Source of the DNA: Patescibacteria group bacterium
GTDB lineage: Bacteria; Patescibacteriota; Patescibacteriia; JBDRGY01
Reading direction: 5' to 3'
Assembly (NCBI GenBank): GCA_043817315.1
Contig: JBDRGY010000016.1
Span: forward strand, 69,445-133,444
DNA length: 64,000 bases
Shown: piece by piece, positions 6,515-60,065 of the stretch
How the letters are laid out: the number at the start of each line of letters is the position of its first letter
Position numbering within the stretch: position 1 is the first letter of the stretch
Position numbers and translations under genes: made by a program
The notes under the pieces: generated by a model
Seen by the model: only the letters and a program-made list of their open reading frames with translations
The model's database searches: none
Told to the model about the DNA's origin: nothing

Positions 6515-6543
6515 TTGACTATTTGCTATTTTTGCGCTATAAT
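6515..6543 (+). promoter_or_regulatory. Near-consensus sigma70 promoter (TTGACT, 17 nt spacer, TATAAT)
   Basis: ttgact (6515-6520), 17-nt spacer, tataat (6538-6543). Confidence 0.6.
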
Positions 6544-9700: not shown

Positions 9701-11117
9701 GGGTAACTATCAATTTATGGGCACTCCTGGCACTAACTTCTGGATTACTGAAGATTCTGAACCAGCCTGGTACACTTGGGATTTAGAAATTCTTGACCCC
9801 AACAATCAGGTAGCAGAACAGCTGCAATCCAATGCCACTATCTGCATGCCCTTAAAACAGGACGTTATGGACGAAAAAAGCTTAACTGTTGATGATATCT
9901 TTCCCAAGTATTGGGATACAACCGCTTCCGCCTGGAAAACTCCTGAATCAGCCATTATCAACGAGGCTGAGGGTCAGGCCTGTCTACAGGTATCTCACTT
10001 TACTGAATTCGCTCTAACCACTCAGGCTTCTTTAGCAGGCGCTGGAGGAACAAGCGGTCCAGCTGATATCTTGGCTACCCCGGCTTCCGGCGGTGGTCCT
10101 CAGATCATTATTGCTAATGAAGACGGCAGCACAGTTTCTAACTTCTTCGCCTATGATTCCGGGCTGCGAATTGGTCTAACCGCTGCAACCGCTGATGTCG
10201 ATGCTGACGGCGAGACCGAAATAGTAGTCGCTCCGGGAGCCGGAGCCGGTCCTCAAGTCCGCATCTTCGATCATCAAGGTAATGTAGAAAGACAATTCTT
10301 CGCCTATCCCGAACATATCCGCTCTGGCATCTATGTCACCACCGGTGATGTCAACGGAGACGGCACGGATGATATCATCACCTCCACTCGAGAAGGTGCC
10401 GGACCACAAGTAGCTGTCTTTGACTCTGACGGCAATACCATCTCTCGTTTCTTCGCTTACGCCGAAACCTATCGCAATGGTTTCAGCGTTACCACTGGTG
10501 ATGTTAACGGCGATGGGTCTGATGAAATAGTCGTGGTGCCTGACGGCAGCGCCGGACCGCAAGTCCGCGTCTTCGACTATCAAGGCAATGAATTGGCTTC
10601 TTTCTTCGCCTACGGTGACACTGTCAGAGGTGGTTACAACGCCACCACTGGTGATGTTAACGGCGATGGCGTAGCTGATATCGTCATTACCCCCAAAGCT
10701 GGTCTAGGTCCTCAAGTAGCCATGTTCACCGGCACCGGAACCTTAATTGACCGTTTCTTCGCCTATGCGGAAAGTTTTCGAGGCGGTATTAACGTTTCAG
10801 TCGGTGATACAGATGGTGATGGCAACAATGACATCGTGGCTTGTCCCGAATCAGGTGCTGGCCCCCAAATCAGAGTCTTTGACACTGATGGTTCGGCCAA
10901 ATCACAGTTCTGGGCTTATGCTTCCACCTTACGCGGTAAATTCACCTCATTCGTTGCTGATCTCAACGGAGACGGCACCAATGAAGTGGTAACTGCTCCG
11001 GGTGAAGGTATGGGACCGCAGGTCAGAACTTTTGATAGAAACGGAAATCCTCTATCACAGTTCTTCACTCACCACACCGGCTTTCGAGGTGGCCTCAACA
11101 TGTTCCCGGCTTACTAA
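6726..11117 (+). CDS. Giant secreted surface protein: signal peptide, multiple CarboxypepD_reg/Ig-like beta-sandwich domains, C-terminal array of 8 FG-GAP-like propeller repeats
   Basis: N-terminal Sec signal (MKKLKKTKIIVSTLTVLALVVPLAMG...AQA); RBS AAAGGAG. Repeated G-[TK]-V-x-d-x-G-x-P...NG-x-Y modules. The C-terminal 340 aa or so carries 8 repeats of consensus G-x-GPQVRVFD-x-x-G-N-x(4)-FFAY-x(3)-[FY]RGG-x-x-V-x-x-GDVNGDG-x-D-E-I-V. Confidence 0.8.
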   Translation: MKKLKKTKIIVSTLTVLALVVPLAMGNSIQTAQAGDDSRISAVAVATGYSKTAGATTSYTVTFTVPSGHPINVGTSVSLRFQGSGCPWDIDWMQCQFDLENATVATGSFTIADQWSEGSEGIGFAANAKLSAGSYTVTISNVGNPAVIGGLYQIFGSTRVQDDPPEEGVEQPMTPSNALLLGNVIVTGTVYDTDGTTPMQNVWVQLHSNDWSVDFGSNTNSNGQYALIGALANGTYTMEAHAPWENTDVLSPDPKTVNYSGTTLTSNFAMIAPVKTIKAYVKYNNGVPCTSARVNANKRDGGGGSGARVDANGLAQFSVSGGNWELRPECGWDPENNQPLNCNWAFNQPGQQVSFTNDSSTETKTVNLTVQQTNAKIKGTVKLPNGTLLSNGFVDIRSGGPDGGGGNGSGLWNGAFDANVMAGNYKVSVHPDDQNPDLARYYSDEVDVNVGVGETKTLNITMKQKTSKITGTVKNKTTGAGVEGVWLNTWKREGQGWSNTQSGANGAFTFWVSAGDWEFNVDTHRRDENQATTYIPADSKMHSVSVGNNETVSGMVINVQEADANISVKAVDKNGAAITEDTWGWAFCRKKGQGWGPGNEFGSGMQQGTANIPLIGGFTYICGMHNPPDSPFLLEEDKEVTVAAGQTAQVNLTLLEPDSAIIGWVKDQQGNIVKNMGNQAEVFAVEAGGNWEWRPGRLNDDGSYEVNLLGGPDKIYMVGFRVWGMEKGESEFVETHPEPDDSIRVPANSEVTKIITAFRADTYISGQVLDPSGNPMGNVWVGADNHQAMEGKIKGDFEGGKVFNTGTGTRPDGTFKLNIVSGTFNLYSGTPPEFQNDFMSPRERQVTVTSASPAEGIVMQYRQADAFITAAATLPSGSSPMFGWCHAWNPEGGHSGRDIFDGQPARIPLTAGTWFVGCDTMDPETNKFYRSEEQRVSVATGDDKSLSFSMTEESYTIPEPFSQTFTASQLNVFTLPDGTTVTLPANAAGSEEGNYQFMGTPGTNFWITEDSEPAWYTWDLEILDPNNQVAEQLQSNATICMPLKQDVMDEKSLTVDDIFPKYWDTTASAWKTPESAIINEAEGQACLQVSHFTEFALTTQASLAGAGGTSGPADILATPASGGGPQIIIANEDGSTVSNFFAYDSGLRIGLTAATADVDADGETEIVVAPGAGAGPQVRIFDHQGNVERQFFAYPEHIRSGIYVTTGDVNGDGTDDIITSTREGAGPQVAVFDSDGNTISRFFAYAETYRNGFSVTTGDVNGDGSDEIVVVPDGSAGPQVRVFDYQGNELASFFAYGDTVRGGYNATTGDVNGDGVADIVITPKAGLGPQVAMFTGTGTLIDRFFAYAESFRGGINVSVGDTDGDGNNDIVACPESGAGPQIRVFDTDGSAKSQFWAYASTLRGKFTSFVADLNGDGTNEVVTAPGEGMGPQVRTFDRNGNPLSQFFTHHTGFRGGLNMFPAY

Positions 11118-11174: not shown

Positions 11175-11203
11175 TTGAAAAAGAGTCAAAAATGTGCTAT
11201 AAT
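11175..11203 (+). promoter_or_regulatory. Near-consensus sigma70 promoter (TTGAAA, 17 nt spacer, TATAAT)
   Basis: ttgaaa (11175-11180), 17-nt spacer, tataat (11198-11203). Confidence 0.6.
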
Positions 11204-11319: not shown

Positions 11320-14300
11320 ATGTCAATCATTAAAAAAATCGTCTCCATTATCACTGTAATTTCCTTGGTAGCTCTGCTCTATCCCCTGGCTCCTCCTCAG
11401 CCTCAAACGGCCAGAGCAGCCACCCCGGGGAAGTTTACTGATGTATCAGTAACAGCGAGTAATTATACGTACGATGCTGCTGCTAATATTACTTTTACCT
11501 TTACTACAGCCAACTCTCTTACTGCCGAGAATGATGTTATCCGTTTTTATTTTGAGAATTTCAGTGATTGGGCCAACACCTTTACCTTAAGCAGTATTAC
11601 TGACGATGGTGGCTCCATTGATTACATGGAATACAAAAGCACCAATTATATTGAAGTTTACTTAGTTAGCTCCCCTGTTGCAGCCGGTTCAGTGGTTGAA
11701 GCTGTTTTTGCCGTTACTCACAGAGACATTGTTGGTTATGAAAGAGTAGGCATTGTTTCTTTCAGCCCGGACGGTGGGGGCACTGCTTATGAAGGATGTA
11801 CTGATGCCGGAGGGGGTGGTGCTTGGGATGATTGCACCCCTTATTATGTTATAGTGCCGGTTGGTACTCCGGAAGTAAAGGGCCGGGTTTTGGGACCAAT
11901 TGGTACGGCGGATGTCAACAACGGTATTTTTGAAACTAATGTCAATCTCTGGAACAGCGGTGGTTATTGGAATTGGGCCGCTACCGATCATCTCGGTTAT
12001 TTCTATTTCTACCAAGTGCCGACTAGTTCATGCGAGCTGGACTTTAGTAAGCCCTGGGATGCTGGTGTTGCTTACTCTGCTCCTGATAATCAAACTACAA
12101 CAGTAACTAGCGGCTCTACCACTGATATGGGGATTATCAGATACAATCTAGCTTCTGCAACTGGCATCGTAAAAAGAGAAGATAACGGGCAAGCTCTTCA
12201 AGATGTTAATATAAATTTCATGAACATTCCCATGCCCCCTACTAATACCGACGAGAATGGCCGATTCTATCTACCGCGTGTTGATCCGGGAACTTATTAC
12301 GTAATGATCGAAAAACCCTGGGGAGAAGCTGGTGAGGGCTTGGTTAATCCTGAACCTATCTCTGTAACTGTAACGGCCGGCTCTACAACTAATATGGGTA
12401 CCATTTATCTGGAATCAGCCAACAAAACAATCAAAGGTACTGTCAGACATCCTAACGGCAATCCGGTAACCGATGCCCAGATTGGTTGCAACACCCCCAT
12501 GGGCGGCGGTTGGTATTCAGCTACTACCAATGGCGCTGGCTACTATGAATTATTGGTCGGCAAGGGCCACTGGATGTGTTGGGTAGAACATGATTATAGT
12601 ATTCCTGATCACCAATTCAACTGGGTTTATTTTGACATGCCTTCGGGAATAACTTTTTCTGCAGACAATGCAGTAACCGAAACTAAAACTCAAAACTATA
12701 CCGTAACTGCCATTGATTCGACCATCCGTGGGCGAGTATTAAAGCCCAACGGCAGTCCTCTGACGGGCGAACCAGTTAATGTGGAAATCTTTAATCAAAC
12801 CGGTGGCGGTAATTGGATTCAAGTGGATTCAGCTACCGGAGCTTTTTCAGTCGGTGTACCGGCCGGTACTTATCAGGTAATGGTCAACATGTGGAGTGAT
12901 AACTGGGGCGGACCCAGCCCACAAACAGTTACTGTCTCAGCCAATTCTACTTATAATATGGGTAATCTCTATCTTCTGCCAAAAAGTGCCTCTATCTCTG
13001 GTACGGTGTCGGATACAGACAGGGCCGGGCTAAATAATCAATTTGTTGATTGCTGGGTACAGAATGAGTGGGGCAAATGGTCCTCCGGCAACACGAATAG
13101 TAATGGAGACTTCAGCTTTGCTGCCTTTGGTGGTTCTACCTATATGTGCAATCCCATGACCAATATGGGAGGTTGGGGAGGAGAGAATGAAGAGACTTAT
13201 GTTTATTTGGGTGCTCCTCAATCTGTTAATCTTCCTAATGTAACTAGCGCAGCTACCGGCGTAGATTTTGAACTGACCCGAGCTGACGCTACTATTAATG
13301 TAACCGCAGTTGACAGTAACGGAGATCAAATAAACGATATCTGGGGTTACGCTTTTATAGGTATGGGTGACATGATGGGCCCAGGCATGGGTGGCACTCC
13401 AATTGACGGTGGTACCGGTAGCTTCAAAATCCCCTCGGCTCAGTGTCCTGCCAGTTCTCCCTGTTACTTGAGTATTTCTATGCCTCCAGGCCAAGGAGCT
13501 GATTACTCGCCAGCTGGAGCAGTCTCTTTTTCAGTAACAGCTAACGGCACCGCTAATGTAAAAGTAGCTATGGTTCCTAATGATGCCACTCTGACAGGTT
13601 ATATTGTTGACAGTAATGGTGATGCTATAACCGGGGTCAGTGCTGTCGTCTTCGCTGACAAATTCGCAACAATGTCTTTCTTCGAATCTTGGGTAAATAT
13701 TGCTACCGGTCAATACACTATGAATACAGCTCCTGGAACTTATACTCTAGGCTATTTTGTTGATAAATCCACTGGCTATTTAGCCAGTGGGATGACTGAT
13801 AACGAAGTAACTACTGTCTCCGGTCAATCTGTCACCAAGAATTTAACTTTGGCCGAAATCGACTCCTGGATTACCGTTTCCGTCAAGGCACCCAACGGCG
13901 GCCCTATGCCCGGTGCTTTTGTTGACGCCTCGACTCAATCAGGTTTGGGAGAAATTCATGACGGCCCCATGATGGGCCCTGGCATGATGATGGGCCCCAT
14001 GATGGGCCCTGGCATGATGGGTGAAATGACCGGGGCAGATGGTACTGCTACTATTGGTTTGCCCGGCGGATCTACTTATTATGTCTCAGCTTCCCTGCCC
14101 CCTGAAATGAGCTACATCAACCCTGCCAAGCAGGCTGTAACTATAGAATCCGGGGAAACGGCAACCCTTACTTTACAATTCAGAGAATCAGATGCCACTA
14201 TTTATGGCACGGTGACCAAAGATGGCACGGCTACCTATGCCGGTGTCTATGCCTATTCTGATACTGGCGGCTTTACCCAAGATTTTGCCTGGAACGGCGC

Positions 14301-16497
14301 CTATTCTCTAAATGTTACCCAGGGCGATAACTGGCATGTTATTACTAAAGCTCAAGTAGGCAATGATTATTATTCCAGTGGTGAAAAAGTAGTAACAGTC
14401 GATGAGGCCATGGAAACACTTAATTTAGAATTAAGTTTAGCCGTGGCTAATATCCCTGATCCAGTCACTGCTACTTTTACTTGCTCTAATCCGGCGGTAG
14501 TGGCTTTTGCCGACAACAGTGTCACCGTAAACCTACCGGCCGGAGCTCTGTCCGCTAGCCAAGAAGAAACTTGTAAGATTACCCTTACCCCTCAGCCCCT
14601 ACTGCCCGATACTGCCGAAAGAAAAGTATTTAGATTCGGAACAGAAATCGTTGGTTATGTTGAAAATGCAGAAAAGGAAGATCAATTTAATTCCAGTGCT
14701 ACGGTCACTATCTGCTGGAATGCAGAAGCCATGGAAGCACTTGGCTTAACTATAGATAATTTTAATGGTAGTTATTGGGATGAAAGTGCTGCCTCTTGGA
14801 TGGGCACCAATAATTCGACATCGGATGAGGATAATAATTGCATAACCTTCCAAGCTAATCACTTTACTGACTTTGCTATCACTTCAGCTGAAATTTCAGC
14901 TCCCCGGATCACTGTTACTAGTCCAGAGGATGAAACTACAACTATAACGGCAAATTCAATAGTGGTTGAGGGCACGGTTTCTGACGTCAACGCTGATCTG
15001 ACCATCGCCTTGGACGGTACTTCAATTGGCGCAGTATCAATTGACTCTGCCACCGGCGCCTTCTCAGAAACAGTCACAGATCTATCTATCGGCACTAATA
15101 CCATTACAGTTGATGCTGAAAACGGAGTAGGAACGGCTGCTACCGTCTCCAGGACTGTAACTTACGATGCTGCTGGTGAAGGAGATCTGGGCACTGTTAC
15201 CGGCGTTGAATTATCACTGGCTGCCATGCCTTACGGTGACGGAGGCCCTCAAATCAGGCTATTCGACAAAGAGGGCACTGCTATCGGTACCTTCTTCGCT
15301 TATAGTCAAGATCTGGTTGGTCAATTCCAAATGGTCTCGGCCGACTTAGATGGCGATGGAGCCAAAGAGATTATCACCTCAACTGGTGAAGGATTTGGTC
15401 CTCAGATTAGAGTGTTCAAAGCTGACGGCACCTTGCTGGATACTTTCTTTGCCTACCAAGAATCATTCCGAGGTGGTGTTGATCTGGCCTTAGGAGACAT
15501 ATCCGGAGACGGCAACATTGATTTGGTAACCAAGCCGACTCAGGGCGGCGGGCCCAATGTCCGAGTCTACCAATGGGATACCGCTACTCATTCCTTCGAG
15601 CTCCTGGATTGGTTTATGGCCTTTAATGAAGGTTTCCGGGGAGAAATCAACTGGCTACTAACTGATGTGGATAATGATGATGCCGCAGAGATAATCATGG
15701 CTCCCAAATCTCAGGGTGGGCCCAATGTCAGAGTCTACCAGTACAATGGAAATGCCATGGAAGTAAAAGATTGGTTTATGGCTTATGATGAAAATTTCCT
15801 GGGCGGTGTCAATATCCTGGCTGGCGATGTAGATGGAGATAATATTAAAGAAATCATTACCACTCCCCATCAACAAGGCGCCCCCAACGTTAGAATCTAT
15901 CAGTGGAATACCGCTTCCGAACAATATGAAGTGCTCGATTGGTTCTGGGCCTTTCAAAACTCCTTCCGCGGTCAATTCAACACAAAAATTGCCGACGTCA
16001 ACGGTGACGGCAATAAAGACATCATCGTGGCTCCGGCTGAAGCGGGCGGACCCAACGTCAGAGTCTATACCTACAACACAACTGACGAAATTGTTGAGCT
16101 GATTGACTGGTTCTGGGCCTATCAACAGAACTACCTGGGTGGTGTCAATCTGGACATAGCTGATCTGGATGGTGATGGTAATAAAGAAATTATCACTACC
16201 CCCAATGCTAGCGGCGGCCCCAACATCCGGGCCTATGAATACAACCCTGATGATGGAGCTTTTGAAACATTGGATTGGATAATGGCCTATCATGATACTC
16301 ATCGGGGCATGATTGAGACCCAAGTAACTGATTTAGACGGAAACGGTGACAGTGAATTGATAGTTGCACCCTTAACTAATGGTGGTCCCAATGTCAGGAT
16401 CTATAATTATGCTGATGGTGATCTGCAGCTAGACAACTGGTTTTGGGCTTTTGCCGAAACCTTTGAAGGTGGTGTCAACATCCAAACTCTGTATTAA
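11320..16497 (+). CDS. Giant secreted surface protein: signal peptide, several CarboxypepD_reg-like beta-sandwich domains, Met/Gly/Pro-rich low-complexity tracts, C-terminal array of about 9 FG-GAP-like repeats
   Basis: Signal peptide MSIIKKIVSIITVISLVALLYPLAPPQPQTARA. Modules such as GRVLKPNGSPLTGEPVNVEIFNQ...GTYQVMV. Tracts GMGDMMGPGMGG and GPMMGPGMMMGPMMGPGMMGEM. C-terminal repeats GGGPNVRVYQ...DWF[MW]A[FY]...[FL][RG]GG[VI]N...D[VL]DGDG..EII..P, about 58 aa each. Confidence 0.8.
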   Translation: MSIIKKIVSIITVISLVALLYPLAPPQPQTARAATPGKFTDVSVTASNYTYDAAANITFTFTTANSLTAENDVIRFYFENFSDWANTFTLSSITDDGGSIDYMEYKSTNYIEVYLVSSPVAAGSVVEAVFAVTHRDIVGYERVGIVSFSPDGGGTAYEGCTDAGGGGAWDDCTPYYVIVPVGTPEVKGRVLGPIGTADVNNGIFETNVNLWNSGGYWNWAATDHLGYFYFYQVPTSSCELDFSKPWDAGVAYSAPDNQTTTVTSGSTTDMGIIRYNLASATGIVKREDNGQALQDVNINFMNIPMPPTNTDENGRFYLPRVDPGTYYVMIEKPWGEAGEGLVNPEPISVTVTAGSTTNMGTIYLESANKTIKGTVRHPNGNPVTDAQIGCNTPMGGGWYSATTNGAGYYELLVGKGHWMCWVEHDYSIPDHQFNWVYFDMPSGITFSADNAVTETKTQNYTVTAIDSTIRGRVLKPNGSPLTGEPVNVEIFNQTGGGNWIQVDSATGAFSVGVPAGTYQVMVNMWSDNWGGPSPQTVTVSANSTYNMGNLYLLPKSASISGTVSDTDRAGLNNQFVDCWVQNEWGKWSSGNTNSNGDFSFAAFGGSTYMCNPMTNMGGWGGENEETYVYLGAPQSVNLPNVTSAATGVDFELTRADATINVTAVDSNGDQINDIWGYAFIGMGDMMGPGMGGTPIDGGTGSFKIPSAQCPASSPCYLSISMPPGQGADYSPAGAVSFSVTANGTANVKVAMVPNDATLTGYIVDSNGDAITGVSAVVFADKFATMSFFESWVNIATGQYTMNTAPGTYTLGYFVDKSTGYLASGMTDNEVTTVSGQSVTKNLTLAEIDSWITVSVKAPNGGPMPGAFVDASTQSGLGEIHDGPMMGPGMMMGPMMGPGMMGEMTGADGTATIGLPGGSTYYVSASLPPEMSYINPAKQAVTIESGETATLTLQFRESDATIYGTVTKDGTATYAGVYAYSDTGGFTQDFAWNGAYSLNVTQGDNWHVITKAQVGNDYYSSGEKVVTVDEAMETLNLELSLAVANIPDPVTATFTCSNPAVVAFADNSVTVNLPAGALSASQEETCKITLTPQPLLPDTAERKVFRFGTEIVGYVENAEKEDQFNSSATVTICWNAEAMEALGLTIDNFNGSYWDESAASWMGTNNSTSDEDNNCITFQANHFTDFAITSAEISAPRITVTSPEDETTTITANSIVVEGTVSDVNADLTIALDGTSIGAVSIDSATGAFSETVTDLSIGTNTITVDAENGVGTAATVSRTVTYDAAGEGDLGTVTGVELSLAAMPYGDGGPQIRLFDKEGTAIGTFFAYSQDLVGQFQMVSADLDGDGAKEIITSTGEGFGPQIRVFKADGTLLDTFFAYQESFRGGVDLALGDISGDGNIDLVTKPTQGGGPNVRVYQWDTATHSFELLDWFMAFNEGFRGEINWLLTDVDNDDAAEIIMAPKSQGGPNVRVYQYNGNAMEVKDWFMAYDENFLGGVNILAGDVDGDNIKEIITTPHQQGAPNVRIYQWNTASEQYEVLDWFWAFQNSFRGQFNTKIADVNGDGNKDIIVAPAEAGGPNVRVYTYNTTDEIVELIDWFWAYQQNYLGGVNLDIADLDGDGNKEIITTPNASGGPNIRAYEYNPDDGAFETLDWIMAYHDTHRGMIETQVTDLDGNGDSELIVAPLTNGGPNVRIYNYADGDLQLDNWFWAFAETFEGGVNIQTLY

Positions 16498-29415: not shown

Positions 29416-29449
29416 AAAAAAGCAAACAGGAGATTGTTTGCCTTTTTTT
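29416..29449. terminator. Bidirectional terminator between ychF and the subtilase gene
   Basis: AAAAAAGCAAACA-ggaga-UGUUUGCCUUUUUUU. Confidence 0.7.
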
Positions 29450-29462
29450 ATTCAATATTTTC

Positions 29463-32400
29463 TTAAAAAAAGCCAGCCGCTATAGTAACTCCGCCTGTAT
29501 AGGAGACGTCATAGGCCAAAAATTCTGGCGACAATAACCGTCCTTCCTGGTTGTAGATCCTGATATAGGAAGCCCCTGAGCCCCCGACCCCCGTAATGAT
29601 CTCATCGTAGCCATTTCCGTTGGTGTCAACGGCCGTAACCGACACACCACCCCTTGAAGCCTCATCAAAGGCCATAAAACCAGGACTTAGTATTTCATAG
29701 GCCTGACTACGTCCCACCCCGAATATTCTGACATGGGGTCCGCCACTGCTGACAATTCCCGTTATGGTCTCTTGCTTGCCATCGTTATTGACGTCACCGG
29801 CACAAGAAGTGATGCCGCCTCTAAAACTTTCCTCATAGGCCATAATTCCTAAAGTAACTGGTGTATAGCGCCCTTCCCTCATGCCAAATATCCTGATATG
29901 AGGACCACCTCGGCTAGTGGGCGTAGTTATCAATTCGCTGATACCGTCACCATCCACGTCAGCAATGGAGACAGCAATTCCACCTCGAAAATTTACATCG
30001 TAAGCCATAAAATTCTCAGTGGTCGGAACTATCTCTCCGTTTCTCAGGCCGAATATTCTGACATTGGGACTGCCGCCACTGATTGGAGCCACTGCTATTT
30101 CATAGAGACCATCGCCTTCAATATCACCCACCCCGATATTGATACCGCCTTTAAAATTGGCGTCATAAGCGTCAAAATCCCAACCCAGATTGTTGCCGTC
30201 AACATCAAAAACCTTGATAGTAGGAACACCGCCCTCTCTGGTACTGGTAATTATTTCTGAAATTCCGTCACCATTGATGTCTCCTACAGCCACATTGATT
30301 CCTCCCCAAAAATCCATATCATAAGCGTAGAAATAATTTACCATCGTACCGTCAGTATTTAAAACACCAACTAGTGATTGACCATTTGACTTGGGGCCAG
30401 TAACAATGTAACGGTTGAGGGTATAAATATAAGTAAAGTAGGTGCCGTCAGAAATGTTATCCAGATCATCTACTGATTTTAGATGCAAATAGTAGGTGCC
30501 GTTGGCCGTCAGGGTAGGGACACTGAAATTAGTTCCAGTCTGGAAGGAACCGTCTTCGGCATCGGCAGTCAAGTCAGTTGATAGGTTCACATAATAACCT
30601 TTAATATCACTGGCAGCATCTACCGCCGCACTCCAGGTAAAGTAGGGTTGGGGGTGGCGATAGGAAACAGTGGCGGGATCAGACAACGCCTCCGTAGCTG
30701 TGCTGCTTGAGTAAACAGAATAAGTGGTAGGATCGGTAGGGCCTGTTTTGTCGATATTGGCGACTGTGGCTGTTGCACTTCCCGGGTTGCCGATTGAGTC
30801 AGCAAATTCAAAGGTGAAGCTGCCGTTTGCGGTAAATGTATATGTGGTAGCACCACTGTTGTTGGTTACAGTAACAGTTTCACTGGGCACTAAAGTGGCC
30901 ACCACGCTTTGATTAGTCGCGGCAGTGGTCGAATAGCTAATGGTGGCAGTGGGGGCTGTGGCATCGGTCTGGCTAAGCGCGTTATTGGCGTTGATCCGAC
31001 CACCGGTTTTAACTTTTCCGGTTAATGAGCTTTTGGTTTCAACATTATCGAGAATGGCATCTTTTATACCGGCATAGGTGTAATTGGGATTATATGACTT
31101 TAGTAAAGCAGCTAATCCGGCTACGTGCGGTGCTGCCATCGAAGTCCCGTTCATGTATGCATAGTTCTGTAGAGCAACAGTCGGATAGATAATCCTAATG
31201 TCATCAATTGCCGCTCCAAAATAATTGCTGTCTGATCCATTGGTCTCCCAGGTAAATCTCACTTTCATATTGCTATCTTTGTAGCTGGAAACATTAAATC
31301 CGCCAGTCCCCGATGTGGCTGAGCCGCAATAATATCCTAGTTCGGTCCAAGAACTACCGTTATAAACATCAGCCGACAGATAATCATTAAAGCATAGGGT
31401 TGAATCCTCTGCTTCCACATAATAATAGTATTGAAAAATAACGGTACTTTGTCCGGCAGTGTTAATGGCATCCGAGGTTAATACCCCGTCAGAGCTAGTC
31501 TGATAGGGGGAATAAGAAGTGTCACCATAAGCCCAGACATTGCCACTGGCAGTATCGGTCATCCAATAGTTATTGGTGCCGCTGCTGGTAAAATCCGTGC
31601 CATTAAAGCCCGGCTGGACGGCATTTTCGAACCCTTCATCGAATTCAAAATAAGGCACGGTGCTATATATATTAACTCCAGGAGCAGCCACATCAACTGA
31701 GGTGGTGCCATAATTGGAAAAGCCGGCCAAACTATCGTTTTGATCGGTGGCGGCCACTGAAATTATATTATCCAGATCATAATCAGAGGGATATTGATGA
31801 GTTCCTCCATCGTTGTTAGTAGCGTCATTGCCAGCTGCTGCCACTATCAAACAGTCGTAAGTAGTCATACCCTCCTCTATGGCGTCATACATGGCCTGCG
31901 AATAGCCAGATCCCCCTAGGCTCATGTTGATAACATCAGCTCCTTGGTCATAGGCTTCGTAAATTCCAGAAACGATATCAGCGTTCGTCCCGAAACCCGT
32001 CAGCCCCAATACCCTGATTGGCACAATTTTGATATCCGATCCAAATCCGGCAATCCCCTGTCCGTTATCAGCTACGGCCGCAATCACCCCGGCAACGTGA
32101 GTGCCGTGATCCAGAAAATCGTAGGCATTGGCATCGTCATCTACAAAGTCATATCCTTGTTCAATTTGAGAACTCAATTCGGGGTGGTATAGAGCTACTC
32201 CGCTATCAATCACGGCTACTGTTGCTTCGGAAGTACTGGCACCGGCCACAACATCCCAGGCGGCCGGCATGTCAATATCGGCATCGGCAGTGCCGGCGGT
32301 ACCGTTGACGGTCTGTCCTGTATTGTGTAGGCCCCACTGAACACCGTAATAGGTGTCGTTGGGGGTACTGGAGGCTTGATAAATATAATTAGGCTCTACA

Positions 32401-32747
32401 TACTCGACAAGCGGATTATCAATTAGGCCCTCGACAAGCTGCTGGGTGGTTTGACTATCAGATTTTAGTAAAGTAATGTTTTGTCTGGCTAATCTGGTTT
32501 TTTCCGTAAGATTTTCGCCCCGAGCCAGTGCTGTCATTTTATTTATTCCCCGGGACTGATTGAGGTCCAGATCGCTTTTCTTAAATTTCACCAGCACTTC
32601 TCCCTCTATATAGTCAGCCTTTTGTCTGTCGAACTCGGGCAATCGACCAACGCTGGAGCTGGCCGTTAATCGAGGAAATAAAATTAAAACAGCTATCCCA
32701 AAAATTAGAATAGCCCCAAGTCGTTTTATTTTTTTTGAGATAACCAT
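29463..32747 (-). CDS. Secreted subtilisin-like serine protease (peptidase S8) fused to a C-terminal array of about 7 FG-GAP-like propeller repeats
   Basis: Catalytic triad motifs AVIDSGV (Asp), HGTHVAGVIAA (His), GTSMAAPHVAGLAALL (Ser). N-terminal signal/anchor and an I9-like propeptide. C-terminal repeats GG-x-P-x-[IV]R[IV]FG...[FM]AYD...FRGG[IV]...[GA]D[VI][DN]GDG..E[IL]IT homologous to those of the other three large proteins. Own promoter (TTGTCA, 17 nt, TATAAT) at 32780-32809 on the minus strand. Confidence 0.85.
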   Translation of the reverse strand: MVISKKIKRLGAILIFGIAVLILFPRLTASSSVGRLPEFDRQKADYIEGEVLVKFKKSDLDLNQSRGINKMTALARGENLTEKTRLARQNITLLKSDSQTTQQLVEGLIDNPLVEYVEPNYIYQASSTPNDTYYGVQWGLHNTGQTVNGTAGTADADIDMPAAWDVVAGASTSEATVAVIDSGVALYHPELSSQIEQGYDFVDDDANAYDFLDHGTHVAGVIAAVADNGQGIAGFGSDIKIVPIRVLGLTGFGTNADIVSGIYEAYDQGADVINMSLGGSGYSQAMYDAIEEGMTTYDCLIVAAAGNDATNNDGGTHQYPSDYDLDNIISVAATDQNDSLAGFSNYGTTSVDVAAPGVNIYSTVPYFEFDEGFENAVQPGFNGTDFTSSGTNNYWMTDTASGNVWAYGDTSYSPYQTSSDGVLTSDAINTAGQSTVIFQYYYYVEAEDSTLCFNDYLSADVYNGSSWTELGYYCGSATSGTGGFNVSSYKDSNMKVRFTWETNGSDSNYFGAAIDDIRIIYPTVALQNYAYMNGTSMAAPHVAGLAALLKSYNPNYTYAGIKDAILDNVETKSSLTGKVKTGGRINANNALSQTDATAPTATISYSTTAATNQSVVATLVPSETVTVTNNSGATTYTFTANGSFTFEFADSIGNPGSATATVANIDKTGPTDPTTYSVYSSSTATEALSDPATVSYRHPQPYFTWSAAVDAASDIKGYYVNLSTDLTADAEDGSFQTGTNFSVPTLTANGTYYLHLKSVDDLDNISDGTYFTYIYTLNRYIVTGPKSNGQSLVGVLNTDGTMVNYFYAYDMDFWGGINVAVGDINGDGISEIITSTREGGVPTIKVFDVDGNNLGWDFDAYDANFKGGINIGVGDIEGDGLYEIAVAPISGGSPNVRIFGLRNGEIVPTTENFMAYDVNFRGGIAVSIADVDGDGISELITTPTSRGGPHIRIFGMREGRYTPVTLGIMAYEESFRGGITSCAGDVNNDGKQETITGIVSSGGPHVRIFGVGRSQAYEILSPGFMAFDEASRGGVSVTAVDTNGNGYDEIITGVGGSGASYIRIYNQEGRLLSPEFLAYDVSYTGGVTIAAGFF

Positions 32748-32828
32748 GTGTTGTAATTGGTTACTTTCTTATAGTCAATATTATAACTCGGTTTGACCAA
32801 AATTGACAATTGTCTAGTAGCATATACT

Positions 32829-37954: not shown

Positions 37955-38632
37955 TTAATTATTATTCCCGTCTTCTTTTTTGTAGAGAATTTGTCTGGTT
38001 ACGACCCTTTCTTGACTGCGTTCTTTGGATACAACAATGGTAATGGTATTAACCCCTTCTTGTAAATCGACAGTTTTTTCAAAGTGACCAGCTGGGTCGG
38101 CTAATACTGTTTGTCCGTTGATAACAATAATTGCCTCTGCCTCGGTCTGGCCAGCTACTATCACTTCAGCTTGATTAATTGTCAGATTGTCGGGCGGGCT
38201 CTCAAGGATTAGCTCGGGGGGGACAAAAATCATCTTAATCTGCAGTCCCAGATAGATCAATATGGCAACTACTATGACCATGATGACTGAGTTGCGGATT
38301 GTTTTGGGAGTAATTATGGATTTCGGCATTTCTTCGGATTTCCGTGGTTTTTTTACTCTGGTTACAATATTACTTTCTTTCTGATACAGACCTAAAACCA
38401 TATCTGGATTAACTTGCATATATTCGGCGTATTTTTTCAAAAAACTTTTAGTATAAATTTCACCAGGCAATCGGTTGTATTCACCTCTTTCTAAAAATTC
38501 AATATACTTTTTTTGAATTCCAAGTTCTTCTTCGATCTGCTCTAAAGAAACATTGGCCTCTTGGCGCATGCGGGCCAACCGCTCCCCCAAAGTAGTACTG
38601 CCGATTACCCTTTTACCACTAAAATCTTTCAT
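37955..38632 (-). CDS. RodZ-like protein (XRE-type HTH, single TM helix, C-terminal beta domain)
   Basis: HTH ([25 protein letters not shown]), one TM helix, C-terminal DUF4115-like region. Confidence 0.55.
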
Positions 38633-41831: not shown

Positions 41832-44753
41832 CTACTTGAGAAGCACCATCTTGCGCGAAGAACACTGTTGCCCTGTCTCCAGCCTATAGAAGTAAACGCC
41901 GGAGGCAACGGCTCTTCCATGGTTATCCCGACCTTGCCAGACCGCAGCCTGCTGACCAGCTTCCTGCTCTTCGTCAACAAGGTTGCAGACCAGTCGGCCC
42001 GCCACATCATAGACATAGAGCTGAACTGGGCCAGCTTGGCTAAGGCTGTAGGCGATGGTGGTAGTCGGATTGAAAGGATTGGGATGGTTGGGCAGCAACC
42101 GGAATGAGAACCCAGCTTCGGTGGCTTCCGCAACCCCGGTAGCGATGTCTTGCCAGCCAATCGGCAGAGTAGGATCACCCAGGATCGAGTACATCCGGAT
42201 CTGGTTATGAGTCTGAGGACACTCCTCGTAGGCCAGCTGCTTTGCTGCCAGCGTGGCCTCACCTAGTGTAGTTTCGTTCCCCATGTAGAGCTCACCCGCC
42301 AGATAACTGAAGATTTTGGAGTTGGTGTACTGATCTGAGATATCTGTAGGCCCCATCCAGGCCCTGGCTCCCTTGCCAGGTGCTGTCAGGAAGTCAGTAG
42401 CCATGTCCAGGCCCCAGCTGGATTCACCTCTGGTGAAATCAGCCATGCCGCAGCAGAAGCCGAAAACGATAGGACTGGTCCAGTTTTCTACCAAGTAAGT
42501 CATGTCGAAGTAGTTATTCCACTTGGTCAGAATAGACCCGTTGCTGATCCGGTTGGCCAAAGTGCTGAAGTAGAACTTGTAGTCGATTCCCGCATTCTGG
42601 ATAGCACAATCTGCATCCCGCCTGGCGGAATAGGAGAAAGGGTCATCCGAATAACGGTAAATCGTGGTACTGGCAGCCAGCTGCGGATCAAACTGACCAT
42701 AGATACTCATGGCCAGCGTCTCGGCATAGGCACCGCGGCAGCCTGACAGATTCCAGTTGCCAATCATCAGACCAGCCTGACAACGACCAGAGCGATCAAG
42801 ATGCCATTCTACAAACTTGTCGGCAACGATCCACAGCTCCTGGAGAGTATTGATTGGCACGCGGCCTACGGCTATGTTTTCTTGTCCATCACCGTCGGTA
42901 TCTCCGTACCAACCATCCCAGGCATAGAGATCATCGTCGCTGTAGTAACAACCGTCCCAGAGTACGTAGTAGCTTTGAATCAGATTCTGCCCTGGGAGCA
43001 GTCGATTGGCATCACCCCACAAAACAACGTGGGTAGGCAAGGGGTCCATAGCCAGAATGTAGTCTTTGATGTCCTGCGGCTGAGAAGTGGTCCCGAAATC
43101 TTCCAGGGCCACGAACTGAACCAGATGACCTTCTAGATACTCCAGGGTATAAACCCAGTAGTCCAAATGGTCAATCCAATCCGCCGGGCAGACACAGAGC
43201 ACATCCGGGTCAGTCAGCCCCCCATCCTTAGGTTCGCCATCTGGTTGCGGAGGTGTCTGATACTTGGGCTGGTAGACAACCGGCTCCACAAGTTCTGGTG
43301 GTTCCGGCCAGCTAGACAGTACCTCGGTGGAAAGATGCTCCAAGACATTCCCGCTTATCTCCATCTCAACAATCTGATAGAGAAAGTCGGGCTGTCCAAC
43401 AACATCACTCCAGTAATACTGGGCCCCTTGACCATCACTGCCCTGATGCCAGATCGGTTCACTGACTGTCTGCCAGGTAAATCCATCATCGAAAGAGCAT
43501 TTAACCTGGAAGTAGTCAGTGTCCTTTTCTGACTCAGTTTCCCAGTAGACGATTACCTGCCCACCTTCTTCTACGGCAGTCACTCCCAGCACTGATGCAG
43601 CTGGCGGTTCACCGTATTCGGAATAGTAGGCGGTTACGTAATCGTCATGGCTGGGGGGTCGGCAGTTTTTGCCGCTGTAAAACGGCGGTTGACCAAGGGG
43701 GTCAGTGTTGCCGTTAAGATAGCGGTCTTCACTATTTCTGCCTTTGACCTTGTCCCAGTTGACCCAACGAGGAAACTCACCGTAGGCGTGTACCCGGATG
43801 TCGTATTCCAGCTTGGTGTCGGAGTCTTTCAGCTCAATGTTTTCCAGCTCGGCATAGATTGAGGGCATACCAAGGATATCTTCTATGTTATCCTCTGCCT
43901 CAATCGGCGTGTCGAACTCGACATAGGCATCGTTGAAGCTGGATGACTGAAAGACGTAACCGGAATCCGGATAAACCGCACAAACAGCTGGAAACAACAC
44001 TGTATTGTCGTGGCCAACTATAGACCAGGCACCGTTGGTAGAAAACATGTGCTGATAGCCATGTTGAACCGTTCTTTTGGTCCGTCCTCGCTCGGCATTG
44101 AGATAGGTACAGAAGGTATCAATGCTAGCAAAGGCTTGAGTGTTAATCAGCTCTGGACAGTGACCAATGGCAGTGCCTGCTCCCCATTCATCCAGCCAGA
44201 GAGCACTAAAACAGTATTCGGCCAAGACAATAGACCGTTCATCCCCGGCAAAATCCCGACAGATATGAGGCCTAACTCCAATGCCATAATATCCTGTATA
44301 CCCGAAGTAGGCAGGATAAATGTCATCGGGGTAGCTGTATTGACCCCTTCTGACGTAGCGAATCAGGGCAGAGTCCCGGTCAGCCGAATGTCTGTAGGCT
44401 TCGATCATTAAACCATCAGGGCCATTGGCATCATTCTCGGTGCCGTGTGAAGAGATGGCCAGAATGGAAATCCCAGGCGTGCTGATCACGCTTCTGAAAT
44501 CAGCGATGGAGAACCGGGGAATGGTGTCAGGAGCCGGAGAGGTAACGTAGTACTTTTCCATGTCCAGATGGCTTTCTGTTTCCATCCGGTCAAAGGGAGC
44601 ACTATCGTCACCAAACTGAAACTCCCAAAGCAACAGATTAACCACTGTGCTGGTGTGCACTGTCCGATACTGATCAATGCGCTGCCAGGCTACATTGACC
44701 ACGGGTATCAGTAGCAGTCCTACCAACATGATTGTTGTGATTCTCTCTTTCAT
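41832..44753 (-). CDS. Large secreted protein with a T9SS-type C-terminal sorting domain (Por_Secre_tail-like) and a putative clan-CD (gingipain/C25-like) cysteine-peptidase region
   Basis: N-terminal signal peptide. The C-terminal 85 aa or so, FSFRLLPNHPNPFNPTTTIAYSLSQAGPVQLYVYDVAGRLVCNLVDEE...AVWQGRDNHGRAVASGVYFYRLETG...RKMVLLK, matches the type-A T9SS CTD pattern (NPFNP-x-T-x-I-x-Y-x-L, YD-x-x-GR-x-V, W-x-G-x-D-x-x-G-x-x-V-x-SG-V-Y-F-Y-R-L, K-[ML]-x-L-[LI]-K). An H-G dyad (ISSHGTEND) and a hydrophobic-strand Cys (IVLAEYCFS) suggest a caspase-fold protease. Real start is the ATG at 44753 (RBS AGGGGGG 8 nt upstream); the track ORF begins at an in-frame GTG. GC clearly higher than flanks. Confidence 0.6.
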   Translation of the reverse strand: MKERITTIMLVGLLLIPVVNVAWQRIDQYRTVHTSTVVNLLLWEFQFGDDSAPFDRMETESHLDMEKYYVTSPAPDTIPRFSIADFRSVISTPGISILAISSHGTENDANGPDGLMIEAYRHSADRDSALIRYVRRGQYSYPDDIYPAYFGYTGYYGIGVRPHICRDFAGDERSIVLAEYCFSALWLDEWGAGTAIGHCPELINTQAFASIDTFCTYLNAERGRTKRTVQHGYQHMFSTNGAWSIVGHDNTVLFPAVCAVYPDSGYVFQSSSFNDAYVEFDTPIEAEDNIEDILGMPSIYAELENIELKDSDTKLEYDIRVHAYGEFPRWVNWDKVKGRNSEDRYLNGNTDPLGQPPFYSGKNCRPPSHDDYVTAYYSEYGEPPAASVLGVTAVEEGGQVIVYWETESEKDTDYFQVKCSFDDGFTWQTVSEPIWHQGSDGQGAQYYWSDVVGQPDFLYQIVEMEISGNVLEHLSTEVLSSWPEPPELVEPVVYQPKYQTPPQPDGEPKDGGLTDPDVLCVCPADWIDHLDYWVYTLEYLEGHLVQFVALEDFGTTSQPQDIKDYILAMDPLPTHVVLWGDANRLLPGQNLIQSYYVLWDGCYYSDDDLYAWDGWYGDTDGDGQENIAVGRVPINTLQELWIVADKFVEWHLDRSGRCQAGLMIGNWNLSGCRGAYAETLAMSIYGQFDPQLAASTTIYRYSDDPFSYSARRDADCAIQNAGIDYKFYFSTLANRISNGSILTKWNNYFDMTYLVENWTSPIVFGFCCGMADFTRGESSWGLDMATDFLTAPGKGARAWMGPTDISDQYTNSKIFSYLAGELYMGNETTLGEATLAAKQLAYEECPQTHNQIRMYSILGDPTLPIGWQDIATGVAEATEAGFSFRLLPNHPNPFNPTTTIAYSLSQAGPVQLYVYDVAGRLVCNLVDEEQEAGQQAAVWQGRDNHGRAVASGVYFYRLETGQQCSSRKMVLLK

Positions 44754-44766
44754 GGCATCCACCCCC

Positions 44767-45387
44767 CTAATTCGAAGAGTTGGATGGCTGCTCAGTTGCC
44801 TTCTCGGTCACGATCAAGCCGTCCTGGTAGTACACTCTGCGACCTTGCTGCAACAAGCGAGCCAACAACGCCATGCGAGATTTGGCCATAGCTTCGTCTG
44901 TTCTAGTCGGACTAGTCCTGGCCTGGAACACCTTGAGCTTGGGAATAGGAAAGTCCCGTTCCTTAACCTGGATACTTCCATTGTCCAAGACCTTAACCCA
45001 CTCGTAGATGTCAGGGTGCTGGCCATACACTGCGTCAGCAACCTGCTGGGTAATTTCTTTCTTGTCACGACCAGGTTCTGCATCGACCAGCTGCTGGAAC
45101 AGGCTATAGGCCTGATCATCCAGCTGATCCTTGATGTTGACTGAATCGGGCTGTTGCATCTTGGTGTCGCCAAGGGTCGGGTAAATCCTGACTCCATTGA
45201 CGAAGGCCTCGCTCCCCACAACCTTAAGGAAGTAGGGGCCAAGCACTTCCTGCTCACCCTCTTCATCAACTACCACGAACTGACCCGTCTCTATCAAGAG
45301 ACTGTCAGGCAGCGCGGGCGTGTCGTTGGCTACTACAGTCACGGCCATCAGGGCCACGATCATCATTGCGAGACTAAGGTGTCTCAT
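44767..45387 (-). CDS. Secreted hypothetical protein (206 aa), first gene of the island operon
   Basis: Start trimmed to MRHLSLAMMIVALMAVTVVA (ATG at 45387, RBS AAAGGAG). Signal peptide. Its stop TAG overlaps the RBS of the 976-aa gene. Confidence 0.5.
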   Translation of the reverse strand: MRHLSLAMMIVALMAVTVVANDTPALPDSLLIETGQFVVVDEEGEQEVLGPYFLKVVGSEAFVNGVRIYPTLGDTKMQQPDSVNIKDQLDDQAYSLFQQLVDAEPGRDKKEITQQVADAVYGQHPDIYEWVKVLDNGSIQVKERDFPIPKLKVFQARTSPTRTDEAMAKSRMALLARLLQQGRRVYYQDGLIVTEKATEQPSNSSN

Positions 45388-45532
45388 GGTGGTCACGCTC
45401 CTTTCAGGATTACTCCAACTGCCAATTGACCAATCGATCTGTTGCGGCAAGAAAACACCTCCTCTCAACCACGTTAGACGTTTACTGCGCTTTCCTTTCT
45501 TAGAAAACCATGGATTTTCAAGGTACGTATCC

Positions 45533-45552
45533 AAAAAAAACCTCATATGAGG
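45533..45552 (-). terminator. Intrinsic terminator on the minus strand about 200 nt downstream of rpoC; right boundary of the island
   Basis: Minus strand reads GAAAG-CCUCAUAUGAGG-UUUUUUUU. Confidence 0.65.
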
Positions 45553-54629: not shown

Positions 54630-55558
54630 TATATAAAACTGAAAAGCTTACCAATAAACAACAGGTAGATTAGGATCATTAATAACCCTTCGGCTCGATT
54701 AATCTTTCTGTCATGGCTAACCACCCAGTACAGAATACTAACGGCCAGGATAAAGGGAATGATTAAGGTGACAACTACCTGAGGAACCACTAGGGTTGTA
54801 ATCAGGCCGGAGGCTCCCAGAATGACGAATATATCAAAAATGTTGGAACCGATGATGTTGCCAATTAACAAATCATGGTTGCCCCTTCTTACAGCTGTTA
54901 TGGCTACGGCAATCTCCGGTAAAGAGGTGCCTACAGCTATCAGGCTAGCCGCCAAAACTGAAGTGCCAAAACCCAGTAATCCAGCAATTTCAATAATCGA
55001 TTTGATAATCCAGTGCGAGGAAAGGGCAATAATTGCCAGGCTGATAACAAGCCCCCAGATAATTTTCCAGGAAAAAGGCTGCCGGGAGCTTTCTTTACTG
55101 TCTCGATGAACAATGCGGGAATAAGACAAATAAACAATAAAACCCAATAGAAACAGCAGGGCTTCTCTAGGGGTCAAATTTCCGTCCATCATAGTAAAGA
55201 AGACCAATAAAATGGCTCCTATAAATATGGGAAAGTCACCCTGAAAGATATCGTGTTTTATCTTGATTATCTTTTTGCTAAAAATTGCCGCCAGTCCTAA
55301 GCCCAGCAGAATATTGGCAATAACCGTTCCTAAAACATTGCCGGAGACCATTCCGGTTTCTCTCTGAATAACTGACGACAAAGAAGTAGCCAGTTCCGGC
55401 AAGGAGGTGCCTATCGCCACTATGACCACCCCTACAATAAACTGAGACATGCCCAAAACATGACCCAGTTTTTCGGCATAACGCGTAAAAATATTGGCTG
55501 ATTTAACCAGGGCCAATAGCGTGACAAAAAATAGCAGAAACCACAGTAACAAATTCAT
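54629..55558 (-). CDS. Ca2+/cation antiporter (CaCA/NCX family, YrbG-like), paralog A
   Basis: Two alpha-repeat regions (GTSLPELATS... and GTSLPEIAV...); 10 TM helices. Confidence 0.8.
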   Translation of the reverse strand: MNLLLWFLLFFVTLLALVKSANIFTRYAEKLGHVLGMSQFIVGVVIVAIGTSLPELATSLSSVIQRETGMVSGNVLGTVIANILLGLGLAAIFSKKIIKIKHDIFQGDFPIFIGAILLVFFTMMDGNLTPREALLFLLGFIVYLSYSRIVHRDSKESSRQPFSWKIIWGLVISLAIIALSSHWIIKSIIEIAGLLGFGTSVLAASLIAVGTSLPEIAVAITAVRRGNHDLLIGNIIGSNIFDIFVILGASGLITTLVVPQVVVTLIIPFILAVSILYWVVSHDRKINRAEGLLMILIYLLFIGKLFSFI

Positions 55559-55561
55559 TTT

Positions 55562-59998: not shown

Positions 59999-60065
59999 AA
60001 CCCACCTCCTTCCTTAATAATTTCACTTCTAATTCTACTCTTTTTCTTATTATTTTTCAATAAAA

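Follow-up and report, generated by a model that had tools for sequence, protein, structure and literature searches.

The window analysed here is a 64,000-nucleotide (64 kb) stretch of DNA from an uncultured Patescibacteria (CPR) bacterium. An S8 peptidase of 1094 amino acids is encoded at 29463..32747 on the minus strand, with an ATG start and a stop codon at 29463-29465. This ATG is the only in-frame start. The locus raises two questions: whether the protein is a working protease, and where its long C-terminal tail places it. Unless marked otherwise, the coordinates below are on the minus strand.

The gene and its flanking signals

The encoded protein has 100% identity to NCBI MFH1598592.1, which is also named S8 peptidase. 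The gene is an intact subtilisin-type protease and is ordinary as an enzyme. In a scan of GTDB genomes, the single close relative is from a Patescibacteria MAG (41% identity) and the others are distant S8 peptidases. The architecture is undescribed in the literature searched, which covered subtilases with MAM inserts, pyrolysin inserts, and FG-GAP plus transpeptidase proteins in CPR. A capA-like gene lies upstream, separated by an 81-nt intergenic gap, and the convergent neighbour is ychF. A conserved operon is rejected, as unrelated genes surround two orthologues.

A sigma-70-type promoter-like site is present at 32780..32809. It consists of TTGTCA (32809-32804), an 18-nt spacer and TATAAT (32785-32780), and it matches 11 of 12 consensus positions. 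The site is sense-oriented and lies within the 81-nt gap, 32 nt upstream of the ATG. Comparable boxes precede the ATG of two orthologues by 37-50 nt. At this spacing, matches with one mismatch or fewer are expected by chance 0.6 times per window, and at least one is found in 43 of 100 shuffles, so the hexamers alone are not significant. It is the position of the site, not the hexamers alone, that gives it weight. All three matches at this level in the window are upstream of genes that encode FG-GAP modules. The first-pass annotation was correct in giving the gene its own near-consensus promoter-like site, with these boxes in this position, but its 17-nt spacer is 18 nt instead.

The short leader (32748..32779) contains no Shine-Dalgarno motif and no Rfam element, its sole Rfam match being at chance level. 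The absence of a Shine-Dalgarno motif had been noted before as a feature of this gene. However, approximately 28 of the 36 genes in the window lack such a motif, so the absence is a trait of the genome, and the significance attached to it for this gene is not supported. A terminator-like hairpin at 29416..29447, with a 13-pair stem followed by a T-run, lies 16 nt past the stop codon. It is usable in both directions and common to ychF, after which a matching plus strand hairpin is predicted. Transcription would start at the gene's own promoter and end at this bidirectional hairpin.

Predicted export, prodomain and a split catalytic domain

The protein begins with a predicted signal peptide (aa 1-30; 32658..32747) made up of KKIKR, a hydrophobic stretch at residues 10-28 and a cleavage site between LTA and SS. 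The hydrophobic stretch is the only one in the whole subtilase, and the AF2 model predicts a helix at aa 7-23. The first Cys is at or beyond residue 299, so the subtilase is not a lipoprotein. Sec export is predicted from these sequence features, as is the cleavage site. The Leu at -3 is not ideal, so the peptide may also be an uncleaved anchor. The protein, like its orthologues, ends on the last propeller strand (...YTGGVTIAAGFF), which rules out an LPXTG anchor with a C-terminal hydrophobic tail. A C-terminal transmembrane anchor is likewise ruled out, since the sole hydrophobic segment is N-terminal.

The signal peptide is followed by a fervidolysin N-pro-like prodomain (aa 40-126; 32370..32630). 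Its assignment is based on Pfam Fervidolysin_NPro (PF22148), which scores 40.7 bits over aa 40-120 (cut-off 21), and on model confidence, with pLDDT of 96-98. A low-confidence linker is next (aa 130-137), and solved homologues begin their mature chains, as aligned, at S127/T128. The propeptide had been described as I9-like. A propeptide is indeed present, but the I9 label fits only loosely, as the match is to Fervidolysin_NPro; we take the two to have a common fold. Fervidolysin (1r6v) has the same prodomain type and, as in the subtilase, beta-sandwich domains after the S8 core. It differs in having neither a jelly-roll in the catalytic domain nor a propeller.

The catalytic domain is in two parts. 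The N-terminal part (aa 127-365; 31653..32369) contains D181, H214 and N307, and the C-terminal part (aa 528-597; 30957..31166) contains the nucleophile S536 in GTSMAAPH. The corresponding codons are at 32205-07 (D181), 32106-08 (H214), 31827-29 (N307) and 31140-42 (S536). Pfam Peptidase_S8 (PF00082) matches in two stretches with 177.3 bits, far over its cut-off of 21.8, and the domain has the subtilisin alpha/beta fold. In a 65-sequence alignment, neither the triad nor the oxyanion Asn varies. These residues also align with those of deseasin, AK.1 protease, thermitase and subtilisin BPN'. A pseudo-protease is therefore rejected, and the Pfam part of the HMM classification proposed as a check agrees with the earlier reading of an S8 domain with intact D/H/S motifs.

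The closest likeness is to the thermitase group of S8A, which includes deseasin MCP-01 (3vv3), thermitase (1tec/1thm) and AK.1 (1dbi). These enzymes have the same D-H-N-S residues as the subtilase and share the motif (S/T)PND at the mature N-terminus. Unlike in the subtilase, no domain separates their APG strand from the GTSMA helix, and they have no propeller. Among NCBIfam models, the dentilisin, PatA, QhpE and IteS equivalogs score far under their cut-offs.

A 162-aa all-beta insert separates APG (355-357) from GTSMA (534-538). It appears to form a MAM/CBM-like beta-jelly-roll (aa 366-527; 31167..31652) between BPN' positions 212 and about 213. Of 65 homologues, 25 have both Cys452 and Cys474 of the insert, and only 1 has one of them alone. 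This co-variation suggests a disulfide in the insert, as would be expected outside the cytoplasm. MAM models (PF00629 and InhA-like_MAM PF20773) give no match to the insert at E <= 5, and CUB matches at E 0.027, under its cut-off. The insert was compared with Immune inhibitor A (InhA, an M6 metallopeptidase; 4yu5) and the MAM domains of RPTPmu/kappa. A profile of the insert family matches the InhA MAM domain (E 1.8e-7), whereas the insert of the subtilase itself has no significant Pfam MAM match; InhA is also of another catalytic class. The jelly-roll is plausibly an exosite for recognition of substrates or glycans. In the searches done, no solved structure was found for the subgroup of subtilases with a jelly-roll at BPN' 212/213.

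In the PA-domain subtilases (ScpA, lactocepin, Vpr and plant SBT3), too, an accessory domain separates the oxyanion Asn from the Ser, and long C-terminal extensions serve surface location. In those enzymes the domain has the PA fold and is placed before the APG strand. In the subtilase it is a MAM/CBM-like jelly-roll after that strand, at BPN' 212/213, and there is no LPXTG anchor. The protein is not a PA-domain subtilase of the pyrolysin, cucumisin or C5a-peptidase type.

A propeller shared with cell-wall enzymes

After the catalytic domain, the AF2 model contains two all-beta, Ig-like sandwiches that act as spacers (aa 598-774; 30426..30956; pLDDT about 62-91). No Pfam family matches them at E <= 5 beyond noise. 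A single beta-sandwich had been expected here, in a linear order of S8 domain, sandwich and repeats. The components of that order are all found, but it overlooked the jelly-roll inside the S8 domain and counted one sandwich too few.

The remainder of the protein is a six-bladed FG-GAP-like propeller (aa 775-1094; 29466..30425), as judged from its repeats and strands. The blades are at aa 775-831, 832-884, 885-938, 939-993, 994-1049 and 1050-1094, and each has four strands. FG-GAP (PF01839; 48 bits against 22.1) and FG-GAP_3 (PF13517; 36 bits against 26.9) are both over their cut-offs. The repeats were therefore rightly called FG-GAP-like, but there are six blades and not about seven. Five of the six blades contain Dx[DN/E]x[DN]G loops (DINGDG 823, DIEGDG 875, DVDGDG 930, DVNNDG 985 and DTNGNG 1041), and by these loops the propeller is putatively Ca2+-binding. 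The propellers of integrin alpha share the Pfam families FG-GAP and FG-GAP_3 and the Dx[DN]xDG Ca2+ loops; they have seven blades, in contrast to six in the subtilase. Among solved structures, it is the Kelch, NHL and YWTD propellers, all six-bladed, that match the propeller of the subtilase best.

The same propeller is present on three other signal-peptide proteins of the window, which brings the total to four secreted proteins. One, at 56921-59461 (minus strand), has 46% identity over 368 aa; the others, at 11320-16497 and 6726-11117 (both plus strand), have 34-37% identity. The first-pass annotation, in which the module was common to adhesin-like giants, is upheld by these proteins.

In the wider database, the propeller is found mostly with enzymes that act on peptidoglycan. 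The census covers the best 108 of at least 558 matches, many of them fragmentary and from short contigs. The full-length subtilase orthologues are absent from it, and its proportions are rough. The partners are YkuD (39), M23 (13), Polysacc_deac_1 (5) and PG_binding_1 (1). The L,D-transpeptidase, M23 and polysaccharide deacetylase families occur in 57 of these 108 best matches, and in 57 of the 67 with a catalytic partner. Nearly all of the named proteins among the 108 are from Patescibacteria. The propeller either precedes or follows the catalytic domain; because it comes first in some proteins, a C-terminal sorting signal is rejected. These fusions, at either end and in other Patescibacteria, independently support the earlier idea of a binding or anchoring module.

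In other bacteria, LysM, SH3b and PG_binding domains occupy equivalent positions in wall enzymes. The analogy with these and with CW_binding (PG_binding_1 being the model concerned) is positional, in that each is a non-catalytic module flanking the L,D-transpeptidase, M23 or deacetylase domain of exported proteins. The propeller, at about 320 aa and with six FG-GAP-like blades, is unrelated to them in fold, and its binding to the wall is putative.

Proposed placement of the protease

The favoured reading, held with moderate confidence, is that the protein is an exported, prodomain-activated, thermitase-like S8A endopeptidase held non-covalently on a cell wall by its propeller. After Sec export by the N-terminal signal peptide, the fervidolysin-type prodomain (aa about 40-126) would fold, inhibit the enzyme and be removed autocatalytically near S126/S127. 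This cut would also free the mature chain from any N-terminal membrane tether. The mature chain would be about 970 aa, with the D181/H214/S536 triad. The disulfide-bearing MAM/CBM-like jelly-roll, in a hairpin beside the nucleophile helix, would be a plausible exosite. Two Ig-like spacers would then lead to the six-bladed Ca2+-binding propeller. We infer autoprocessing, proteolytic activity, the role of the insert and the physiological substrate.

The propeller tail, which in Patescibacteria is mostly on cell-wall enzymes, probably keeps the protease on a cell wall. It would be a phylum-typical, position-independent targeting module. As assigned from the fusion partners alone, its most likely ligand would be peptidoglycan or a wall-associated polymer. 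The protease would then be kept on the wall of the producing cell or of a host, where protein degradation may serve nutrition or take place at the interface of symbiont and host.

A protease directed at a host or prey, as the first-pass annotation allowed, is a less probable alternative. In that case a lectin-like propeller would bind glycans or proteins on a bacterial or archaeal host surface, and the enzyme would break down surface proteins of the host and so aid attachment or nutrient extraction. In the window, three large secreted proteins of adhesin-like character, with CarboxypepD_reg and CARDB domains, all terminate in the propeller. The jelly-roll insert is similar to carbohydrate-binding modules and MAM adhesion domains, and the M23 and S8 fusions are possible weapons. 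A published comment on VCBS/FG-GAP-like Saccharibacteria proteins leans, speculatively, to host-glycan binding: the Tn-seq paper concerned speculates that host glycans are the target of an essential envelope protein with a VCBS domain (PMC10633639). Against this, the commonest propeller partner, in 39 of the 108 best matches, is the L,D-transpeptidase. Enzymes of this type (YkuD) form cross-links of the cell's own wall. The fusion partners thus suggest the own wall at least as much as a host. If the ligand is peptidoglycan, the host-directed alternative also overlaps with wall targeting.

Free release as a nutritional protease is improbable. The C-terminal domains would then serve only for stability of the enzyme or for binding to insoluble protein substrates, with no retention at the surface. 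Deseasin carries a C-terminal PKD domain, and its PKD/PPC domains offer an analogy for such a role. Among solved structures the subtilase is closest to deseasin MCP-01, thermitase and AK.1, all of which are secreted enzymes with a degradative function, and the window contains a gene for an oligopeptide-binding SBP_bac_5 protein (2571-4382). In other phyla, S8-plus-insert homologues end in varied C-terminal modules (fn3, CarboxypepD_reg, dockerin and PKD). However, the strong association of the propeller with wall enzymes, and its recurrence on several secreted proteins within a single small genome, point to common targeting and away from substrate binding.

A maturation protease for other surface proteins, such as the propeller-bearing giants, in the manner of mycosins or lantibiotic leader peptidases, is very improbable: a shared propeller could co-localise enzyme and giant substrates and the best NCBIfam match is the T7SS mycosin (TIGR03921), but its 162 bits are far under the cut-off of 278.75, the C-terminal transmembrane anchor is absent, the neighbourhood is not conserved at two orthologues, and the enzymes closest in structure are thermitase-like, with broad specificity.

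Retention on the wall may extend beyond this protein, although the broader proposal is only tentative. The propeller may be a wall-targeting module used across the Patescibacteria in place of LysM, SH3b and PG_binding domains, and the S8 peptidases with a jelly-roll may be a large subtilase subgroup with an exosite. If so, the propeller would bring L,D-transpeptidases, M23 peptidases, deacetylases, giant adhesins and the subtilase to the wall, and the exosite of the subgroup would adjoin the active-site cleft.

The gene itself adds little, as it is already named an S8 peptidase at NCBI and modular subtilases are common. It does draw attention to a subtilase variant that is widespread, lacks a solved structure and carries a jelly-roll inside its catalytic domain. 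Patescibacteria spend their lives attached to other cells. One propeller is found on four secreted proteins of the window and, in the wider database, on enzymes that build or cut peptidoglycan. This sharing provides a testable hypothesis for how Patescibacteria may direct their exoproteins to a wall.

Gene and catalytic core

The subtilase ORF (29463-32747, minus strand; 1094 aa, ATG start) lies exactly where the first-pass annotation placed it, and no alternative in-frame start is able to replace the ATG. The gene is already annotated, and its product is 100% identical to NCBI MFH1598592.1. The other genes of the window are in keeping with a small CPR genome: housekeeping genes (uvrC, RNase J, a trpS/tyrS-type synthetase, glyA, folD, ychF, recA, ftsK, rpoB/C, efp, lexA and dinB) are interspersed with a small number of very large secreted proteins. 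Two subtilase orthologues have unrelated genes beside them, so the neighbourhood is not conserved.

The product matches Pfam Peptidase_S8 at 177 bits (cut-off 21.8) and has a Fervidolysin_NPro-like prodomain at aa 40-120 (Pfam, 40.7 bits). D181, H214, S536 and the oxyanion-hole N307, whose codons were confirmed directly in the DNA, are invariant in a 65-sequence homologue alignment. The same four residues align one by one with those of deseasin MCP-01, AK.1 protease, thermitase and subtilisin BPN'. Because the triad is invariant and aligned with solved subtilases, the pseudo-protease that a misaligned triad would indicate is not what is found here. The full-length AlphaFold2 model, based on the 65-sequence alignment, has a mean pLDDT of 88.9, with 742 residues at 90 or above. 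The NCBIfam equivalogs mycosin, dentilisin PrtP, QhpE, PatA and IteS all score far under their cut-offs.

The single hydrophobic segment is N-terminal and there is no early Cys, a pattern that points to Sec export. The mature N-termini of solved relatives align near S126/S127, which are followed by a low-confidence linker (aa 130-137). The prodomain would thus help folding and be removed by autocleavage near S126/S127. The protein is very probably an active, exported S8 endopeptidase.

A probable jelly-roll insert in the catalytic domain

The S8 match falls into two stretches (aa 174-365 and about 528-597), a feature overlooked in the first-pass annotation. They are separated by a 162-aa all-beta domain (aa 366-527), inserted after the APG strand and before the GTSMA helix, at a site equivalent to that between residues 212 and approximately 213 of subtilisin BPN'. 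Most of the 120 best homologues have approximately 175-215 residues from APG to GTS, against about 19 in canonical subtilases and in a few relatives. The insert is thus usual for this clade. The homologues belong to many phyla, including Patescibacteria, Nitrospirota, Elusimicrobia, Bacillota and Desulfobacterales, and their C-terminal modules are varied.

Several homologues have an insert that matches the Pfam InhA-like_MAM or MAM models; that of the subtilase itself matches neither. Compared with solved structures, a profile of 29 inserts matches reelin sub-repeats (2.8e-8), followed by the immune inhibitor A MAM domain (1.8e-7) and a CUB domain of cubilin (9e-4). No solved subtilase aligns across the insert. 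Of 65 homologues, 25 have both Cys452 and Cys474 of the insert and just one has either Cys alone, a pattern that would be expected of a disulfide in an exported domain. In BPN', the 205-217 hairpin continues to Tyr217/Asn218, which belong to the primed side of the cleft. Because this hairpin leads there, a role for the insert as a putative exosite is plausible.

Expression signals and other loci

The promoter-like boxes of the subtilase gene are TTGTCA (32809-32804, minus strand) and TATAAT (32785-32780, minus strand), separated by 18 nt rather than the 17 nt first reported. By chance, 0.6 such matches are expected per window and at least one occurs in 43 of 100 shuffles; window-wide, the match is not beyond chance. 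The site is in sense orientation, in an 81-nt gap after a capA-like gene and 32 nt before the ATG. In the 64-kb window, just two further sites, at 6515-6543 and 11175-11203 (plus strand), fit TTGACA-N17/18-TATAAT with no more than one mismatch. Both have 17-nt spacers and are intergenic and in sense orientation, 183 and 117 nt before the ATGs of giant propeller genes. All three matches are therefore upstream of FG-GAP propeller genes, which suggests that these surface-protein genes have their own strong promoters. Boxes of this kind, TTGACG-17-TATAAT and TTGTCC-16-TATAAT, precede two subtilase orthologues.

The missing SD motif before the subtilase ATG, to which the first-pass annotation had drawn attention, is uninformative because approximately 28 of 36 genes in the window lack one. 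Several genes have a TATAAT-like -10 box no more than about 10 nt from the start codon (for example, upstream of 28289, 35041 and 59461, minus strand, and of 16574, plus strand), as would be expected if their mRNAs were leaderless or had very short leaders. The subtilase gene and the convergent ychF share, at their 3' ends, a terminator-like 13-bp hairpin (29416-29447) that has T-runs on both strands. No Rfam element was found in the subtilase leader.

Elsewhere in the window, a c-di-GMP-II riboswitch (RF01786; 45576-45659, minus strand; 69 bits, E 2e-13) has rpoC on one side and, on the other, a 259-aa ORF (44767-45546, minus strand) with no Pfam family. This ORF is followed by a C25 (gingipain-like) cysteine peptidase with a FlgD_ig/T9SS-CTD-like tail (41832-44762, minus strand). 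The peptidase has only eight database relatives at E <= 1e-10, one of them from a Syntrophobacteria MAG; beyond its own NCBI entry (100%), the nearest is 36% identical. GC content is 0.49-0.53 in this block vs approximately 0.43. These features suggest a horizontally acquired protease cassette under c-di-GMP control. A non-coding, GC-rich region of approximately 200 nt (60058-60262, minus strand) follows a promoter-like box, ends in a terminator-like hairpin and precedes a small ORF (59744-59998) with a strong SD. Its predicted fold has an MFE of -75.4 kcal/mol (z -4.3), equalled by 0 of 200 shuffles, and no Rfam family matched it. It is a candidate for an unknown sRNA or cis-regulatory leader.

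The propeller module and its partners

After the catalytic domain, the AlphaFold2 model contains two beta-sandwich domains (approximately aa 598-774), for which no Pfam family was found, and then the FG-GAP-like propeller (aa 775-1094), which is above the Pfam FG-GAP thresholds. The propeller has six blades by both sequence repeats and modelled strands (6 x 4), not the approximately seven first counted. It therefore differs from integrin-type propellers, which follow a seven-blade rule. Dx[DN/E]x[DN]G loops occur in five of the six blades. The chain terminates on the last propeller strand (GGVTIAAGFF), as it does in orthologues.

The module was described earlier as shared, and three further ORFs in the window, each with a signal-peptide-like N-terminus, do contain it, although strictly the number of blades varies across this repeat family. 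The 846-aa CARDB protein (56921-59461, minus strand) has six repeats and is co-linear with the subtilase propeller at 46% identity over 368 aa. The 1463-aa giant with CarboxypepD_reg (6726-11117, plus strand) has seven repeats (34%), and the 1725-aa giant (11320-16497, plus strand) has about eight (37%). The CARDB-protein propeller (56924-57883, minus strand) also shares the unusually long hairpins of blades 3-5 with that of the subtilase (29466-30425, minus strand) and is far closer to it than the versions in the two giants. This suggests module duplication or exchange inside the genome. A CutA1 (divalent-ion tolerance) gene (59437-59742, minus strand) lies upstream of the CARDB gene and two tandem Na+/Ca2+ exchanger genes (54629-56551, minus strand) lie downstream, which places calcium-handling genes beside the gene for a protein with predicted Ca2+-binding propeller loops. 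A Glucodextran_B-type beta-sandwich occurs in a small HTH protein of RodZ-like layout (37955-38632, minus strand), in the 1725-aa giant and in several subtilase homologues (precomputed PF09136: P0011, P0021 and P0037), and is probably another shuffled surface module of the lineage.

A propeller-only database search returned at least 558 proteins at E <= 1e-5, and the named matches are almost all Patescibacteria, Parcubacteria or Kerfeldbacteria. Among the best 108 of these, the Pfam partners are YkuD (L,D-transpeptidase; 39 proteins), Peptidase_M23 (13), Peptidase_S8 (8), polysaccharide deacetylase (5), and Peptidase_C39_2, NAGPA and PG_binding_1 (one each). Peptidoglycan-acting families account for 57 of the 67 proteins with a catalytic partner, a rough proportion because it covers the top of the list only, with many fragments and with the full-length subtilase orthologues not returned. 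The fusion proteins have signal peptides and six repeats. An S8-plus-FG-GAP architecture is found in approximately 16 of the 44 best homologues. One S8-plus-propeller relative (P0231), whose propeller is 40% identical, is assigned to a 'Candidatus Nanoarchaeia archaeon' MAG, which points either to mis-binning or to exchange between the two ultra-small episymbiont groups.

Transpeptidase, deacetylase and C39_2 fusions have the propeller on the N-terminal side, whereas M23, NAGPA, PA14 and S8 fusions have it on the C-terminal side. This position-independence argues for a binding module and against a C-terminal sorting signal. Elsewhere in bacteria, such catalytic domains usually come with LysM, SH3b or PG_binding domains, so the simplest inference by analogy is a wall-targeting role for the propeller. 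Binding to a wall component is a credible but tentative reading. The rival reading as a host-glycan lectin has a precedent in a Saccharibacteria Tn-seq paper, in which such a role was proposed speculatively for an essential VCBS-domain envelope protein (PMC10633639).

The subtilase has no LPXTG motif or C-terminal transmembrane segment, and loss of the prodomain would remove any N-terminal tether. Surface retention of the mature enzyme, if any, would therefore be through its C-terminus, by the propeller. Other rival readings are a freely released nutritional protease and a dedicated maturation protease. Modular subtilases are well surveyed, and a 2008 survey lists FG-GAP with trypsins (PMC2605481). 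It is possible, if doubtful, that the propeller serves as a wall-targeting module specific to this phylum and that S8 proteases with the jelly-roll insert form an uncharacterised subgroup.
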